From: a virus
Lineage: Duplodnaviria > Heunggongvirae > Uroviricota > Caudoviricetes
IMG/VR virus record: IMGVR_UViG_2711768166_000003
Strand: one strand, 5' to 3'
Length of the DNA stretch: 37,277 nt
Of the stretch, positions 1,764-11,326 are shown piece by piece. The notes under the pieces were generated by a model. The model had not been told where the DNA came from, did no database searches, and saw only the letters and a program-made list of their open reading frames with translations. The first letter of the stretch is position 1, and the number at the start of each line of letters is the position of its first letter. A program made the translations under genes and the position numbers.

Positions 1764-3347
1764 TTGTTATTCAAAGGAACAAGACAATTGAACACTTTCA
1801 TATTCAGAAATAATGATGAAATCGGGAAGTTAGAGGCAGAATCAGACAATTACTTAGACTCATGTTTTTTAGAGACAAACATATTCAAAGGTATTATGAA
1901 CTTTGATCCATCTGAGAAAAATCCAGATTTTACGAAAAGAATCATCGTTGGAAGAACTGGTAGCGGAAAGTCAGCGATTTTAAGGAAGATTATCGACGAA
2001 GAAAGCATAAAGTTTTCTGATAAGATTGAAGCAGAAAACACTATTTTTGAACATGTTAAAAACAATGTCTTTATTTCATCCCTAAATGATAGTGGAATTG
2101 ACTTGAGAGTTTTTTATAAGTCTTTATGGTTACATGCGCTACTAATAAAAGTCATTCCAGCCTTACATCGGTCAACTTATCAAAGCTTTTTTAATAAAAT
2201 TCAAGACTTAATTGGTGGGAAAAAGAAGTCATATAATCCAGAGTTGGCAAATGAATATATCGAACAATTTAAGGACGTATTTTTTAATGACAAGGCTTTA
2301 GTGGAAATAAGCAACAAAATGCAGAGTGAATTATCTTCTAAGATAGGTATAAAAGGTATAGATCTTGGAGGTAAACTTGGTCGCGAAGACACTCAGAAAG
2401 TGCAGTCTGAAACATCCAGTTATGTAAGCAGAGAGTTAATCAGAAAACAAAAGGAATTAATAAAAATATTAAATGAAGAGTTTTCTGAAGTTGGACAGTT
2501 TAGGATAGTTATAAGCATTGATGATCTTGATCGTTCTTGGCTGAGCTCTAGCGATATAAGATATGATTTTATAAATGCACTATTAGAAGCATTTAGGGAG
2601 TTACTTGACGTCAAGTCAGTTAAAATATTAATTTCGATTAGAACTGATATACTAATGGGTATTTACAATAAAACATTAAGGCAAGATGAGAAGGACCAGT
2701 CTCTTATTTATCCTGTATCTTGGAATAAATCAGAGATCCGAGAAATAATTGACATGCGTATTAATCACTTAATTAAAAATAAATATCAAAGCTCTCGCAC
2801 TATTACAATGAAAGATATTTTCAATTTTGAAATTGATAACGTATATGCAGATGATTATATTTTAGACAGAACAATGTTAAGACCTAGAGATGCAATAAGT
2901 TTTGTAAATTATTGCTTAAAGGAGTGTGATGGGCACGTAAGTATTAATCAAGATATAGTTTTAATGGCAGAAGAGAAGTTTTTTTCTTCTAGGAAAAGAG
3001 CATTGGTGTCGGAATGGGGAACTATTTACAAAAATATTTCAGGTTACATAGACGCCTTATCTTTGTTGGAAAAACATGAATTTTCATTAGAATCAATTGG
3101 AGACGATAATAAAAATGACATTCTAACTTATATTCTTGATAGAGTTCCATCAGATATCGAAGATGATTTACACTCCAAAATAGTAATGAACTTTGATGAA
3201 TTAATAAAAGTATGGTTTATTGTTGGAATTATAGGGATAAAGAGGACTGAAACCTTAATAATATACTCTTCATATGATAAACCCGATCTTGATATCACTG
3301 ATATCAAACGCAACTTCGTCATTCATCCTTTGTTTAATAGAAGATGA
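1764..3347 (+). CDS. AT-rich cargo P-loop NTPase, KAP-like (Walker A GRTGSGKS, Walker B VISIDDLDR); candidate defence ATPase
   Basis: 527-aa ORF; Walker A near residue 63 and hhhhDDLDR Walker B near residue 250 (long A-to-B spacing as in KAP NTPases), further ISIRTD and LRPRDA motifs. Sits between att and int. Start uncertain: track start is TTG at 1764; first in-frame ATG is at 1896; a TATAAT hexamer lies at 1755-1760. Confidence 0.7.
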   Translation: MLFKGTRQLNTFIFRNNDEIGKLEAESDNYLDSCFLETNIFKGIMNFDPSEKNPDFTKRIIVGRTGSGKSAILRKIIDEESIKFSDKIEAENTIFEHVKNNVFISSLNDSGIDLRVFYKSLWLHALLIKVIPALHRSTYQSFFNKIQDLIGGKKKSYNPELANEYIEQFKDVFFNDKALVEISNKMQSELSSKIGIKGIDLGGKLGREDTQKVQSETSSYVSRELIRKQKELIKILNEEFSEVGQFRIVISIDDLDRSWLSSSDIRYDFINALLEAFRELLDVKSVKILISIRTDILMGIYNKTLRQDEKDQSLIYPVSWNKSEIREIIDMRINHLIKNKYQSSRTITMKDIFNFEIDNVYADDYILDRTMLRPRDAISFVNYCLKECDGHVSINQDIVLMAEEKFFSSRKRALVSEWGTIYKNISGYIDALSLLEKHEFSLESIGDDNKNDILTYILDRVPSDIEDDLHSKIVMNFDELIKVWFIVGIIGIKRTETLIIYSSYDKPDLDITDIKRNFVIHPLFNRR

Positions 3348-3477: not shown

Positions 3478-4605
3478 TTACCACGCTACCTTGCTCCATC
3501 CTTTGCCTCGATCGTCATGATAACGATCGGTTTGTTGTTGCGTTTTATGGCCAAGTAGTTTTTGTGTGTCTACCCCCTGTTCTTTGTACAGACGTTCAGA
3601 TAAAGACCTTTGTTCATGGAATGTTGCTGGTGAGCCATTACCCCAGTCAATTTCTGCCAAATCTCTCGCTCTACTAAAATTCGTCGTCAATGTATTGGAT
3701 TTAACCTGCGCGCCACGTTCAGCCTGTGAAGTGGTACGAAAAAAATGCACAAGGTATGGGCTGACTGCATAGTCACGGCAGCGGGCGACTACATCGCGTA
3801 AACTCCAGTTAATTGCATTGAGGCGAAGGGAAAGCGGGATGGCGATTTTGCTCCCGGTTTTTTCTTGGATGACGTGAAGATGATCATCCCAAATATCGCT
3901 AAATTTCATTTTGGATATATCTCCCAAACGCTGCCCAGTGACCAAAGCTAGGAGCATGGCATTTCCCATGTAACGATGACTGGCGTCTGCTATATCGAAT
4001 ATTTTTTGCCATTCTTCCAGGCTGAGGCGTTGACGGGTAATTTTTCTTTTGGGTTGCTTCGTCGCAAGAGCAGGGTTATACCCTGGCGGAACTTCGCCAT
4101 AATGCTGTGCTTCCTTAAACACATCGATCAATACAGACCTAACGACTTGGGCCATTCTAGGCTGTCCAGCTGCAATATACTCATCAAGCAATTGTGCTAT
4201 ATCTCTAACATCAACGGATGAGATCAACTTCATTCCTGCTCGTTCTCTGAGCAAGGATACTGGTTTAGCTTTTTGCTTATAGGTGTTGAGTCTTATATCA
4301 CCACTTTTGAGCCTGTCATCCTGGATCGCTTGATAGCGATCTAACCAGGTTGACGTTGTGATCGCTTTTCCTTTGCTGGTTGCGATCCTATCACTGATAG
4401 CTAGAATCTGCCGGGTTCTTTGCTCAGCCAGACGAGTGTTAGCTTCAGTGGCAATAGCAATAGCTTCAGCTTCATTTGTGCCCAACGAATGAAATTTCCC
4501 GGTCACTGGATGCTTATATCGCCAATAGACTTTATTTACTTTTCTACTATAAAGCGGATACAAGTTAGGTACTGAAACATTATTTTTACGTGGTCTGGCT
4601 GCCAT
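3478..4605 (-). CDS. int: Phage integrase, tyrosine recombinase
   Basis: 375 aa; conserved catalytic elements TGQRLGD (Arg), HEQRSLSERLY (H-x-x-R) and C-terminal TDRYHD (Tyr); adjacent to att and excisionase. Confidence 0.95.
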   Translation of the reverse strand: MAARPRKNNVSVPNLYPLYSRKVNKVYWRYKHPVTGKFHSLGTNEAEAIAIATEANTRLAEQRTRQILAISDRIATSKGKAITTSTWLDRYQAIQDDRLKSGDIRLNTYKQKAKPVSLLRERAGMKLISSVDVRDIAQLLDEYIAAGQPRMAQVVRSVLIDVFKEAQHYGEVPPGYNPALATKQPKRKITRQRLSLEEWQKIFDIADASHRYMGNAMLLALVTGQRLGDISKMKFSDIWDDHLHVIQEKTGSKIAIPLSLRLNAINWSLRDVVARCRDYAVSPYLVHFFRTTSQAERGAQVKSNTLTTNFSRARDLAEIDWGNGSPATFHEQRSLSERLYKEQGVDTQKLLGHKTQQQTDRYHDDRGKGWSKVAW

Positions 4606-5551: not shown

Positions 5552-6376
5552 TCAGGCGGTGAAAGTACCAATAAAGGTTTCTACTTTGCTGTCTTTGAAT
5601 TTATCAACAAGCAGATCACGAAATTCGTTAGCCATTTCCTCCTGCACTGCTTCCAGCTGAATAATGCGTAGTACCAGTACAGGACGATCGCCAGTGATAA
5701 TGCTGAGGCGTAATTTAAACGGACGTTCTTTCAGGCCTTCAAACGGAACGCATTTAAATTCAAATGCCACTGGCATAATGTCTTTGGTCTTCGCTTCGAC
5801 AGACTCCATCAGGGAGCGTTTGCCGCTGAAGTCATTGTCTTCAAAATCAGCAGTCTGGTTCGCTTCAATTGTGATTTTACGGATCGCCGCAGCCGCTTTG
5901 GTTGCCTGAATGGCGTCACCATTAGCATCAAAGCCCACAAGGTAGTCGGCCCAGTCTTCAATCCATTCTGCCAGTGACTTCTGGGAGTTACGCTCGCCGT
6001 TAACAGACAACAGTGCAGAGAACGGTGCTGTCTTTTTCAGTTTGAGAGTGGCGGTATTATCTGCGTGACCTGGTTCATCAATAGTACCCAGGTTAAGAAC
6101 ACTGACGGCACGCATATTATCGGCATCGATAAAGCAGCGGGTGCCTTCATCTGCAAGATCTTTAGAATAACGGGTAAAGTCATCGATGCAGGCAGTGGAA
6201 AGCGCGCCACGGAAACGGAAGCGATTTAAATTAAATTTTTCCAGATCATGAATGCGGAAATTTTCAGGTAATGCCACTGCGTCGGCACCAATCTTACTGA
6301 TAATTTCATTAACACCCTGAGCAGAAATAAGGGCATGGATTTGATTAATTGCGGTTGCGTCTAAGTTCTGAGACAT
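5552..6376 (-). CDS. Conserved prophage protein (YfdQ-like, DUF2303-type)
   Basis: 274-aa ORF co-oriented with the flanking early genes; size and order (120 aa, 274 aa, 178 aa) match the yfdP-yfdQ-yfdR prophage gene trio as I recall it. Confidence 0.7.
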
Positions 6377-6441
6377 AATAAGTCCTCACTATATAAAGAT
6401 ATTCAGTGATGAGGTAAATAATCAGTTAATTAAGAACGATA

Positions 6442-6804
6442 TTAATGACCTGCTGCGCGGAGTTTTCCGTCAGGCTCACCGGCAAGAGTCAGTAATTGTC
6501 CCTGGTCTTCCTGCAGAATAGTCAGGCGCCCACCGCGATTGACATACATCGGCGTTTCGGTGGTGTCTTCTTCGGAAATTTTCCCGCGGTTAGTCGGGCG
6601 AACATATGAGAGTTTGTGTTTGATTTTCACACGGTTCTCATCAAATGGTTCGATTTCCAGGTTGAGTGAGACCTTACCTTTGGTTTTCGTGTTCATCACA
6701 CCGGAAGCGACTTCACTGAGAACTGCGCCGATTTTGGTTTCAAATACGCCGCCGTCCAGCTCCCCGATAAATGCCTGCACATCAGTACCGCGTTCGCTAG
6801 CCAT
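6442..6804 (-). CDS. Conserved prophage protein (YfdP-like)
   Basis: Start chosen at the internal Met preceded by GAGGAG RBS (MASERGTDVQAF...), 120 aa; the longer track ORF to 7032 is rejected. Confidence 0.6.
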   Translation of the reverse strand: MASERGTDVQAFIGELDGGVFETKIGAVLSEVASGVMNTKTKGKVSLNLEIEPFDENRVKIKHKLSYVRPTNRGKISEEDTTETPMYVNRGGRLTILQEDQGQLLTLAGEPDGKLRAAGH

Positions 6805-7083
6805 TTTGCTGCTCCTCATCATATCGACCCTGCAAGGTCGGTTGGTTTCTCCACAAAACAGAGAAGAACACCTGCGGTGGCAGCCGCCCGGATGGATTGG
6901 GTTATGAGCCCGTCGTCCGGTGATGCTCTTCTCTGTTTTGTAAAAAGAGCGGTACCAGCCGGAAGCAAGGGTACAAACTGGTACCGCCAGGACTACACAC
7001 AGCAATGAAACTATTGCCTGTCTTTTCACCACTTCAGGCTCGGTGGTATGCTGGAGTTCTCACACAGCCAGCAAGGAAACCTA

Positions 7084-7425
7084 ATGAACCAGTTTTATGT
7101 TCACGTTCGTCTGTTTGAAGCAACAGCCGAACAGACCAAAAAATTTGAAGAATTAATGCTTAACTTTCTGTACCAGAAAACAATCAAAGAGTCTGACGAT
7201 AGCTGCTGCAGACTGATTCCAGAGGGATATATCCTCAAAAGCACAATGAACTGCCAACAAATCCTTGATCAAACTTTTTCCATTGCTAACAGTGCTGGTG
7301 TTGACGCAAATATATTTGTCTGCAAATTTGAACAAAGCGCATGCTTACTTCCGTCTGCTTCCTTAGTTGGCAACGATTTTGTTCATCACGATCTTACGCC
7401 TAAGCCCATCAAGCTCGATTCTTAA
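7084..7425 (+). CDS. Hypothetical prophage protein (e14 YmfI-like by size and position)
   Basis: Start at the Met preceded by AAGGAA RBS (MNQFYVHVRLFEA...), 113 aa; its 3' end overlaps the convergent ORF 7363..7671. Confidence 0.5.
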   Translation: MNQFYVHVRLFEATAEQTKKFEELMLNFLYQKTIKESDDSCCRLIPEGYILKSTMNCQQILDQTFSIANSAGVDANIFVCKFEQSACLLPSASLVGNDFVHHDLTPKPIKLDS

Positions 7426-7671
7426 TGCCTTAACCATTGTGTCGTGATAAACACGGCTCACCCTCTCTCCATTGCATGGCAGTGGGGTGATCGTGTTAGC
7501 CATGAAATTCATGAACTTGGTTCGATCAGGGTCTTGCGCCTCGCAAGTCTTTAATGCCTGTTTTGCTAACAAAATACGGGCCTCAGTGCCTGCATTTGGC
7601 TCTATCTGCTGCAAACGTTTAGCGTCTTCCAGCAACAATGCGATCACATGCTTCAAATCCTGCTCATTCAT
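7363..7671 (-). CDS. Hypothetical prophage protein, first gene of the leftward early operon (e14 YmfJ-like by size and position)
   Basis: 102 aa; GGAGAG RBS 7 nt upstream of ATG; lies directly downstream of the OL/pL-like operator pair. Confidence 0.55.
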   Translation of the reverse strand: MNEQDLKHVIALLLEDAKRLQQIEPNAGTEARILLAKQALKTCEAQDPDRTKFMNFMANTITPLPCNGERVSRVYHDTMVKALRIELDGLRRKIVMNKIVAN

Positions 7672-7858
7672 CTATTCTCTCCACTGAAATCATCCGCTAA
7701 CGAATCATCCTGGACTTCATATGCCCCAGGCTGTTACTTCGTGGGCGTCCTGCCTGTTCGTTTTTGACATTTACTGACCGCTTACGACACATGCACCGTT
7801 TTGCAACCAGATTTTGTTGTAATCCTGTAGTTGGTCTGGAACAAAAGATAAAATTAAA

Positions 7859-7894
7859 TTGCGAGATATGCAAGTAATATTGCGATATATGCAA
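7859..7894. promoter_or_regulatory. OL-like operator pair (two 15-bp TTGCG-N5-TGCAA sites) with candidate leftward promoter
   Basis: TTGCGAGATATGCAA (7859-7873) and TTGCGATATATGCAA (7880-7894), centres 21 bp apart; on the minus strand TTGCAT and TATCTT hexamers with 17-bp spacing overlap the sites. Confidence 0.5.
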
Positions 7895-7905
7895 AATGAT
7901 GGGTA

Positions 7906-7928
7906 ATAAAAAGCCACCTTTCGGTGGC
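7906..7928 (-). terminator. Rho-independent terminator downstream of the repressor gene
   Basis: Minus strand GCCACC-GAAA-GGTGGC followed by TTTTT, between the CI stop (7949) and the OL sites. Confidence 0.6.
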
Positions 7929-7948
7929 CGATGGATGGGATATTGAGG

Positions 7949-8641
7949 TTAATTATGTCTCTTAAGGGTTTGCGACTGACTGATTAAGACCTTTCCAAAG
8001 ACCATGAATCGGTGTTCGTTTTCGCTAGTAATTCCCCATTCACGGTAAATCTGGTTATCAGAAATCACCAGCAGTTTGTCAGGAATCATTTGAAGTCTTT
8101 TAACGTATATTTTGTCATCAAAACCAAAGACATATATACCATCACCATCAAACTGATTGATGCTGACATCAACGAAGATGAGATCTCCTGGCTCAATGGT
8201 TGGACACATACTGTCCCCACGAACGTTGATAACTTTGATGTGATTGGCTGGTCGTCCGCCGAACATTGATACAGCATTATCAGTTCTGTATTCGATGGCA
8301 TGAATCACATCAATGACATCACCGCCCTGGATAAGGCCATTTCCCGCACTGGCACTGATATCCAGCATTTCAATACGGAACACATCCTTCACCTGCGCAA
8401 CATCCTCATTATTACTGTTTTTATATACAGTATTACTTTTGAGGGCAGAGGTAAAGAGATCAGCAATATCAACACCTAAGCTCTTGGCAATATTACTCAG
8501 TGTTTGTTCGGTAAATTGTTTTTGCTTACCCGTTTCTAAGCGCGAGATGTTCGCCGCATCTACTCCTATTGCTTCAGCGAGATCGGCGATTTTCATGTTC
8601 TTCGCTTGGCGAAGTTGTCTGACTCGGTTTCCTATGTTCAT
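7949..8641 (-). CDS. CI-type prophage repressor (N-terminal HTH, C-terminal S24 LexA-like peptidase domain)
   Basis: 230 aa; N-terminal XRE-type HTH (KIADLAEAIGVDAANISRLETGK), C-terminal S24 motifs (GDSMCPTI ... KRL); divergent from cro. Confidence 0.9.
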   Translation of the reverse strand: MNIGNRVRQLRQAKNMKIADLAEAIGVDAANISRLETGKQKQFTEQTLSNIAKSLGVDIADLFTSALKSNTVYKNSNNEDVAQVKDVFRIEMLDISASAGNGLIQGGDVIDVIHAIEYRTDNAVSMFGGRPANHIKVINVRGDSMCPTIEPGDLIFVDVSINQFDGDGIYVFGFDDKIYVKRLQMIPDKLLVISDNQIYREWGITSENEHRFMVFGKVLISQSQTLKRHN

Positions 8642-10837: not shown

Positions 10838-11326
10838 ATGAGTCTTTTGAATGACGTTCAGAAATTCATTGAAGCCCATCCGGGCTGTACTTCCGGAGAC
10901 ATTGCGGATGCTTTTGCAGGTTACTCACGGCAGCGCGTTCTGCAGTCAGCAAGCAAGTTACGTCAGAGTGGGCGTGTGGCTCACCGTTGTGAAGGAGATA
11001 CACGCAGACATTTCCCGCGCCTGACTGAGAGAGCGCAGGAGCCGGAACCACAACCAGTTCGTGAAACCAGACCTGTGCGCAATTTCTATGTCGGCACTAA
11101 CGATCCCCGGGTGATTTTATGCCTGACCCGCCAGGCTGAAGAACTGGAGTCAAGGGGCTTATACCGTCGTGCTGCAACCGTGTGGATGGCGGCATTCCGT
11201 GAAAGCCACTCCCAGCCAGAACGAAACAATTTTCTGGCACGTCGTGAGCGGTGCTTACGGAAAAGCAGCAAGCGCGCTGCATCGGGTGAAGAGTGGTATC
11301 TGTCAGGGAATTACGTGGGGGCTTAA
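10838..11326 (+). CDS. Hypothetical phage protein (Arg-rich, possible regulator)
   Basis: ATG at 10838 preceded by a GGGGGTGA RBS-like stretch; ends with TAATG overlap to the methylase gene. Confidence 0.55.
   Translation: MSLLNDVQKFIEAHPGCTSGDIADAFAGYSRQRVLQSASKLRQSGRVAHRCEGDTRRHFPRLTERAQEPEPQPVRETRPVRNFYVGTNDPRVILCLTRQAEELESRGLYRRAATVWMAAFRESHSQPERNNFLARRERCLRKSSKRAASGEEWYLSGNYVGA

Follow-up and report, generated by a model that had tools for sequence, protein, structure and literature searches.

KilS, a small RNA (sRNA) of the Rac prophage of Escherichia coli K-12 (b4833), is annotated as a noncoding RNA between sieB and kilR; it was detected by Hfq RIL-seq (RNA interaction by ligation and sequencing) and confirmed by northern blot in K-12, and an independent promoter has been favored for it (Bar et al. 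2021; PMC8175672). RprA is processed to a 47-nt RNA that is active alone, and a 16-mer is the single-stranded part of this form (PMC9262595). DicF of the Qin prophage is made by termination together with RNase III/E processing, according to work cited in PMC5069750. The AsxR and AgvB RNAs of lambdoid prophages of enterohemorrhagic E. coli are very short Hfq sRNAs in which the 3′ part, ∼42 nt long, is conserved and the 5′ 14–18 nt vary (Tree et al. 2014; PMC4104026). The element described here lies in IMG/VR record IMGVR_UViG_2711768166_000003, a stretch of 37,277 nucleotides (the window) that is an e14/SfV-like lambdoid prophage of E. coli, and it consists of two inverted repeats (bp 6852–6988) in the intergenic region between yfdP and ymfI. 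Both repeats are helices of a predicted minus-strand RNA from the early-left (PL) transcript, and they belong to two adjacent modules: the first (module A) has the features of a KilS-like sRNA whose terminator is repeat 2, and in the second (module B) repeat 1 closes a three-way junction.

An earlier note on this DNA had described the pair as a perfect 14-bp and a perfect 8-bp inverted repeat. The 14-bp repeat is present where it was placed, and is the core of a longer one with 25-nt arms (bp 6853–6877 and 6917–6941) that are 84% complementary; the second repeat was also placed correctly, but its perfect part is 10 bp long (6949–6958 and 6978–6987) rather than eight. The 284-nt intergenic stretch folds at −111.3 kcal/mol when read as minus-strand RNA (z = −4.4, 0 of 200 shuffles as good), and the plus strand gives a folding z of −3.4. 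A U-run follows the repeat 2 hairpin on the minus strand only, there being no T-run after it on the plus strand, and one pair of the helix formed by repeat 1 (pair 21-99 of P1, see below) is U-G in 38 of 42 aligned sequences and would read C-A on the plus strand. Because such conserved U-G/G-U pairs would be C-A mismatches on the plus strand, the structured strand is the minus strand. Among the roles that the earlier note had suggested, an sRNA and a structured 5′ untranslated region (UTR) both find a place, with repeat 2 as the apparent terminator of a KilS-like sRNA and repeat 1 as part of the structured leader of the minus-strand gene; the covariance check it had proposed across related prophages was made, and the pairing is conserved with compensatory changes. 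The division into two separate modules, the assignment to the minus strand, the seed (which lies outside the coordinates of that note, at bp 6991–7006) and the relatives KilS, DicF and RprA go beyond it. At gathering scores no Rfam 15 family matched anywhere in the whole window, and at E ≤ 10 the matches were weak or implausible.

Module A begins with a single-stranded seed of 16 nt, AUUGCUGUGUGUAGUC (bp 7006→6991, minus strand), which is identical at 16 of 16 positions to K-12 KilS and to nt ∼60–75 of RprA; in KilS it likewise lies directly 5′ of a related hairpin. It is followed by repeat 2, which by folding is a Rho-independent terminator with an Hfq-type 3′ module (bp 6942..6988, minus strand), made up of a 13-bp stem (6988→6976 with 6960→6948) that contains the perfect 10-bp core and then UCUUUUU, the U-run of 6948→6942. 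Module A folds at −24 kcal/mol, and a pattern scan for terminators, limited to loops of 8 nt, missed it. In K-12 the annotated 3′ end of KilS is the last U of the homologous U-run. By BLAST, bp 7007–6941 of the window match Rac-type phages with ∼78% identity over 67 nt. A scan of viral contigs for the exact 16-mer gave at least 120 loci, and a hairpin plus T-run lies 3′ of it in 88 of 90 distinct sequences, as compared with 12% of random 110-mers; the hairpin comes a median of 2.5 nt after the seed and is itself very diverse in sequence. When loci were instead found through module B and not through the seed, a seed of the GCUGUGUGWAGUC type was kept in 41 of 86 distinct upstream variants.

The likeness to KilS extends beyond the seed to a related GGCGG.A.CAG terminator, to the strand logic, and to the site, which in both is the early-left leader, 3′ of the repressor and just 5′ of the first early-left gene. 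Module A lacks the 5′ 32 nt of KilS, however, the terminator loop and part of its stem differ, and KilS is followed by AAAGTGAATTTTGTG... and kilR, whereas module A is followed by module B and yfdP. Expression and Hfq association are known only for the K-12 copy. By homology, repeat 2 belongs to a new member of the known KilS/DicF sRNA family, and it is quite likely, given the computed homology, architecture and yncL complementarity, that module A is a functional KilS-type sRNA, whose expression, processing and targets are predicted ones. In K-12 Rac (∼1975–2069, minus strand), the annotated 5′ end of KilS is where the 3′ strand of a P1-like helix (GCACAACACGAAGGCGCA ... UGCGCCUCCGGUUGU) starts, and this end could come from processing of the helix, instead of or besides an independent promoter. 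A hairpin motif 5′ of the seed, CCACCGAGCCUGAAGUGGUGAAAAGACAGGC (bp 7010–7083, minus strand), recurs in Rac-type leaders, among them those of loci L053 and L061 and of K-12 Rac at ∼2070–2120; ST64B, LLS and mEp460 have related hairpins and then CACCACAAC directly before the seed. The C/A-rich CACAAC stretch resembles the target sites of GcvB.

The K-12 rprA gene reads ...ACGA-AUUGCUGUGUGUAGUC-UUUGCCCAUCUCCCACGAUGGGC-U8, and its 16-mer plus terminator is the 47-nt processed RprA to within one nucleotide at the 5′ end. Processed RprA (RF00034) has the same architecture as module A, namely AUUGCUGUGUGUAGUC, 2–3 nt, a terminator hairpin and a U-run, and in phage LLS the terminator of module A too resembles that of RprA. 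Unlike RprA, module A has no counterpart of the RprA 5′ domain with its rpoS, csgD and hdeD pairing regions, its upstream sequence is unrelated, it is not at the ydiK-ydiL locus, and it has no recognizable Rcs-type promoter. DicF occupies the same type of locus and has a 3′ terminator domain homologous to that of the KilS-type elements, but its 5′ tail is UUUUCUGGUGACG where module A has AUUGCUGUGUGUAGUC, and no ftsZ-pairing region was identified in module A. Qin dicF and KilS variants such as L066 and L086 share the 3′ terminator domain at ∼90% and have homologous flanks, with AAAGTGAATTTTGTGATG...GGTGAATGCGGCT.AGCGCACG lying 3′ of both and then a division-inhibitor gene (dicB or kil); the difference between them is confined to the 5′ 13–16 nt, which are UUUUCUGGUGACG in DicF and AUUGCUGUGUGUAGUC in KilS. 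From these alignments, DicF, KilS and the window element seem to be alleles of one prophage sRNA locus between which the seed has been swapped. In the literature searched, no description was found of DicF and KilS in this light or of the seed identity with processed RprA, and published text searched for the 16-mer gave RprA uses only. AsxR and AgvB, compared here by description only, have the same design of a conserved 3′ part, a variable 5′ part and a fixed prophage site. They lie 3′ of PR′ in a late “moron” site and are sponges complementary to core sRNAs (PMC4104026), whereas module A sits in the PL leader and copies the seed of a core sRNA instead of complementing it.

The 16-mer pairs through 12 bp with the 3′ UTR of yncL at −18.2 kcal/mol (1 of 1000 shuffles as good), and yncL is a published RIL-seq partner of KilS (PMC8175672). 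The complement of the seed was sought across the window on both strands, and the sole match was the seed's own locus; any target of module A is therefore probably a host RNA. The yncL site in K-12 that is complementary to the KilS/RprA 16-mer (UUUUGCACGCAGCA) lies ∼10 nt past the stop codon and just 5′ of the yncL terminator hairpin, a layout less like that of a classical mRNA target site than like a 3′-UTR-derived sRNA or a sponge. The terminator loop is enlarged in several Citrobacter, Mixta and Klebsiella-type variants (L237, L247, L266, L272, L180 and L303) and contains a Shine-Dalgarno-like AGGAGG/GGGGGA and an AUG, from which a short frame crosses the 3′ stem and the U-run; this frame, which is absent from the window, could encode a leader peptide through which translation is coupled to termination.

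Repeat 1 is the 21-bp closing helix (P1) of a three-way junction, and the whole fold is shared among phages. On the minus strand of the window, the P1 5′ strand (bp 6922..6942) and its 3′ strand (6852..6872), delimited by alignment of 42 distinct sequences, are the two arms of repeat 1. Between them lie the P2 arm (6888..6920), with a 7-bp stem, an internal loop AC/AAUC, a 3-bp GGG/CCC tip (GGG/YCC in the shared fold) and a 7-nt loop CUCAUAA (6908→6902, its CAU at 6906→6904), and, abutting P2, a variable hairpin P3 (GCGG CUGCCA CCGC; 6874..6887). A conserved tail GGAGAAACC and a small hairpin (6842→6823) occupy bp 6823..6851, between P1 and the yfdP ribosome-binding site. Some 80 distinct variants from ∼25 Enterobacterales species were gathered by the conserved core, and compensatory changes maintain the pairing among them. 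In the 42 sequences with a long P1, 94.6% of the cells in P1, P2 and P3 pair, as compared with 39–54% in slid controls; 11 pairs are changed on both sides, against 3–5 in the slid controls, and these changes affect 70 cells against 4–14, with 0 of 500 shuffles as good. For P1 by itself the figures are 94.8% of cells paired over 21 pairs, six of which are altered on both sides. Among 25 distinct P2 arms, 91% of the cells are paired (28–56% in slid controls) and six of ten pairs are altered on both sides; in P3 this is true of two of four pairs, and other phages have exchanged P3 altogether for unrelated hairpins of 14–50 nt. The GGAGAA tail is retained in nearly all long-P1 copies, and the hairpin that follows it alters its sequence and stays a hairpin. 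It is very likely that module B is a selected RNA structure; any specific function that might be given to it is doubtful.

The P2 arm contains CGGGCUCAUAACCC, 14 contiguous nt that are identical to the anticodon stem-loop of the E. coli metZ tRNAfMet and include the CAU loop and the three G-C pairs characteristic of initiator tRNAs. An unexpected outcome of BLAST with the region was a match to DNA that directly follows tRNA genes in Klebsiella phages. This Klebsiella/Raoultella phage form has a P1 of only 6 bp (GGCCUG/CAGGCC) followed by RCCA, starts 6 nt past the CCA of the preceding tRNA, and lies in tRNA arrays 3′ of the Q antiterminator gene and 5′ of the lysis genes. Module B thus shares with tRNA genes and phage tRNA arrays the 14-nt anticodon stem-loop, and its short form takes an array slot and ends in RCCA, but it is a three-way and not a four-way junction and has no D or T arm. 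Other tRNA-like RNAs are known, such as the RNase P-processed CI RNA of P4 and C4 RNAs of P1 and P7 and the tRNA-mimicking thrS operator. The Rfam C4 family did not match module B, and no three-way junction resembling the initiator-tRNA anticodon arm was found described in the literature searched. A single copy of module B was found in the window. Of 127 copies with a long P1, 94 have a yfdP-like gene as the next one downstream and the others have an rdgC-like, yfdR-like or xis-like gene or something else, and since the downstream gene varies, a yfdP-specific operator was rejected.

Across 185,579 species genomes the core pattern was present in ∼25 Enterobacterales species; the non-Enterobacterales hits to an 18-mer core were taken as chance, as none of 20 such loci that were checked had similar flanks or a tRNA in that place. 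A KilS-like seed linked to the late-region copies of module B was considered and dropped because AUUGCU is all that is shared. A hammerhead ribozyme, which the CUGAUGA of the Klebsiella form might recall, was also rejected: these letters pair and covary as the P2 stem, the window has CGGACGA there, and there is no GAAA core. Neither is the P2 internal loop a K-turn, there being no GA on its 3′ strand.

In some phages the same P1 frame (ACAAC...GAGCA / UGCUC...GUUGUGG.GAA, also UGCUC..GUUGUGGUGAA) encloses other interiors, as in L105 at 5654–5790, in L024 at 1337–1457, and 3′ of module B in L176 and L185. Two of these frames hold T-arm-like hairpins, and one interior is two hairpins with T-loop-like UUCAAUC/UUCAAUU loops; P1 and the 3′ tail may be a module in their own right. 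In L082 and L072, a divergent module B with an AGG/CCU tip is followed (at 11205–11270 in L082) by a stretch like the 3′ half of a tRNA, with a T arm CUCGGUUCGACUCCGAG and an acceptor strand, which could be what is left of an attachment site or a further tRNA-like piece. In L292 (∼3660–3730), a metagenome-assembled genome of the Gammaproteobacteria, a tRNAfMet-like sequence passes directly from the anticodon arm to the 3′ acceptor strand and CCA (...GGGCUCAUAACCCAAUCCUGCUCCCGCAACCA), so that it resembles an initiator tRNA without a T arm.

The reading that we consider probable for the locus as a whole is a KilS-family sRNA together with a read-through junction RNA in which P1 is a processing site. 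RNA polymerase that starts at PL or at a weak local promoter would stop at the repeat 2 hairpin, and the 5′ end of module A would be formed by RNase E-type cleavage just before AUUGCUG, as in RprA and DicF. The resulting RNA of ∼65 nt would bind Hfq and pair with host RNAs through the processed-RprA seed, by which the prophage would gain access to some of the RNAs that RprA targets. Module B (6942→6852) would be present only on transcripts that read past the terminator; in these P1 would serve, as a best guess, as a double-strand-specific (RNase III) processing site, whose cleavage would part the sRNA from the downstream mRNA and free or stabilize the conserved P2/P3 core, and a conserved factor would read this core through its CAU loop. 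For this prophage, transcription, processing, Hfq binding, targets and the action of module B are all predictions made from the DNA.

Several results weigh against this reading. A promoter scan of bp 6300–8000 called zero promoters, and no equivalent of the promoter proposed for K-12 KilS was seen here. The RprA model (RF00034) gave 21.1 bits against a gathering score of 70 and aligned at model positions 47–108 only, and that of DicF (RF00039), whose gathering score is 48, gave 15.7 bits (E = 0.15 on 81 nt). About half of the module B loci carry other 5′ tails on the same terminator, so that a seed of the RprA type is not obligatory. For P1, cleavage by RNase III is proposed by analogy. Lastly, most copies of module B were fished by their own core pattern, and the invariance of the core is in that measure circular. 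Variants free of this bias are those that came from BLAST, from the sRNA seed or from a covariance model built from the alignment; the fold is kept in those that the seed or the model brought in, among them a group with a compensatory AGG/CCU tip. Loop variants are CCCAUAA, CUCAUUC and, in ST64B (found by BLAST), CUCAUUA; CAU is invariant in all those seen.

Other explanations have been weighed for module B. It might act in trans as a tRNA-like decoy that titrates or misdirects a host factor reading the CAU loop of tRNAfMet, tRNAMet or tRNAIle2; candidates for such a factor are methionyl-tRNA synthetase (MetRS), TilS, IF3 or the 30S subunit, and an anticodon nuclease such as VapC, which cleaves tRNAfMet. 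Release of the decoy would be by RNase III from the long P1 form, or by RNase P and 3′ trimming from the short-stem RCCA form. The 14-nt identity to the tRNAfMet anticodon stem-loop is what would be expected of a decoy, as is a CAU that stays invariant while loop positions 37 and 38 vary; the core also occurs as a unit in tRNA arrays with a 3′ RCCA, where P1 and P3 make a helix of ∼12 bp like an acceptor/T-arm minihelix, and the element is not bound to one downstream gene. ARAGORN, on the other hand, calls no tRNA in any mode (standard and mitochondrial, run on the window and four module B variants) and at a lowered threshold returned spurious opposite-strand calls only for the variants; the long-P1 form has no CCA, and the RCCA forms are so closely related that conservation of the CCA says little. 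We regard a decoy as unlikely, and it seems rather unlikely that module B is a new class of phage tRNA mimic with an exact copy of the initiator anticodon stem-loop, acting in trans as a decoy or modulator. Such a mimic would be excised through the long P1 in early-left operons or through the acceptor-like RCCA stem in tRNA arrays and would be directed at a VapC-type toxin in abortive infection, at MetRS, at TilS or at IF3. A decayed phage tRNA(CAU) remnant without function, with the long repeat as a recombination scar, would account for the anticodon-arm similarity and for the short-stem form in tRNA arrays. But all three helices have been kept by compensatory substitutions across genera while the sequences of P3 and P1 turned over, and because unselected sequence would not keep its pairing, a remnant is very improbable.

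A function in cis, as an antitermination site of the nut (boxA/boxB) or put type, could lie in module B or in the P1 3′ strand with the next hairpin. Module B does head long early-left and late operons, and in many variants the P1 3′ strand reads boxA-like UGCUCUUU and is followed by the small hairpin, a boxA-like UGCUCUU being present in many; other leaders too have this frame with its tail (GUUGUGGUGAAUGCG plus hairpin), and ST64B, LLS and phiNP have no N-like gene between cI and the first early-left gene. No N-like gene was recognized in the window either, yfdP, ymfJ and ymfI belonging to no family of known function. The boxA-like letters vary, however (GCUCUU, GCCCUU, GCUCUC, and GUUCUU in the window), with compensating changes opposite, and because they covary with the other P1 strand it is the pairing and not the boxA sequence that is selected. 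Module B also lies 3′ of the adjacent strong terminator and not 5′ of it, and the tRNA-array phages have a Q antiterminator gene just upstream, so an antitermination site is quite improbable. HK022 put in particular was tried and rejected: the best hit of the model in the HK022 immunity region was 11 bits, putL is unrelated by eye, and a three-way junction differs from two stem-loops of ∼70 nt just 3′ of PL. As with HK022 putL and the RNase III site/nutL of the λ N leader, there is here a structured RNA in the interval from PL to the first early-left gene, and the long helix could be an RNase III substrate; the locus differs in its three-way junction with a tRNA-like arm and in having no recognized N gene.

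That the repeats act as DNA, as a protein site for the yfdP and ymfI promoters, or as a plus-strand RNA structure has very little probability, and the earlier note's proposal of a regulator site for the divergent genes is not supported. The site does lie between divergent genes, and the plus strand folds well (the z of −3.4), as any inverted repeat must. It is the pairing of the arms, though, and not their letters, that is conserved, including G-U pairs that form on the minus strand only; no plus-strand T-run follows the hairpin; a plausible ymfI promoter (TTTTCA-18-TATGCT, ∼7021–7050) is downstream of the repeats on the plus strand; and the likely operators are ∼900 bp away at ∼7860–7895. Moreover, ST64B, LLS and phiNP lack the ymfI/ymfJ insertion that makes the genes divergent and still have both modules. 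The chance that the region encodes an N-terminal extension of YfdP is negligible, in agreement with the earlier note, which had called the extended frame implausible. An open frame of 196 aa exists (6442..7032), and small hypothetical proteins are annotated here in some phage records, but K-12 YfdP begins at the same ATG as that at bp 6804 (preceded by AGGAG at 6816–6812, the start that the earlier note had given the minus-strand gene), and homology to K-12 ends at the ribosome-binding site. P3 changes in length by steps that are not multiples of three, there are breakpoints at ∼6989 and ∼7004, and substitutions track base pairing. Both modules are absent from K-12 CPS-53, the location of the K-12 yfdP.

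A cI-like repressor gene (helix-turn-helix and S24 peptidase domains; bp 7949–8641, minus strand, from the open reading frame list and a domain match) is followed in its 3′ direction by a clean terminator (7929→7906, minus strand, terminator scan). Beyond it, bp 7830..7895 contain an inferred minus-strand PL promoter and OL operators (the latter at ∼7860–7895), read from the sequence: the palindromes TTGCATATATCGCAA and TTGCATATCTCGCAA are near-identical and overlap a promoter-like TTGCAT-17-TATCTT (−35 TTGCAT, −10 TATCTT). These palindromes and this site are probably the OL operators and PL of the prophage. Farther along the minus strand come ymfJ (7671–7363), the two modules, yfdP (6804–6442; 120 aa, PHROG 204 of unknown function), which is the first gene downstream, and yfdQ (DUF2303; 6376–5552, domain match); ymfI (7084–7425) is on the plus strand, these genes being taken from the open reading frame list. 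The minus-strand order of cI-like gene, PL, ymfJ, module A and yfdP is the same in ST64B, LLS, phiNP, mEp460 and Rac. In ST64B, LLS and phiNP the interval from the repressor to the repeats has no annotated gene, and in mEp460 it has two small hypothetical genes on the plus strand; the repeats are therefore part of the leader of the early-left operon. ST64B, LLS and phiNP have neither ymfI nor ymfJ, homology to other phages stops at ∼6989 or ∼7004, which are mosaic breakpoints, and the ymfI/ymfJ pair appears to have been inserted into the PL leader as a mosaic segment, giving rise to the “divergent” layout seen here. The two genes are convergent and overlap by ∼60 nt (7363–7425); transcripts from PL would therefore cross the whole of ymfI antisense.

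The region of bp 6800–7090 matches 2781 of 5426 complete E. coli genomes, in which the annotated features there are only the flanking yfdP and ymfI; E. coli MDR_56 and APEC O2-211 are 100% identical to the window over this interval. Of the 5426 genomes, 868 have module A including its seed, and ∼1000 more match the terminator part without the seed region. The common allele bears the exact processed-RprA seed, which would be a testable route by which prophages could rewire the envelope-stress and RpoS-linked network, and a locus with a swappable seed may be looked on as a natural experiment on sRNA seed exchange. With its strong covariation, its exact initiator anticodon arm and its two operon contexts, the junction RNA is a candidate new RNA family that merits an entry in an RNA family library, or it may point to a new phage-host interaction at tRNA recognition; if the rather unlikely tRNA-mimic explanation were true, a single short stretch of RNA would let the prophage mimic both a core sRNA and a core tRNA. 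Small “hypothetical protein” genes have been annotated across modules A and B on either strand, for example in mEp460 (1470–1613), in Stx2 phages and in many E. coli genomes, and in view of the RNA evidence these calls are probably mis-annotations.

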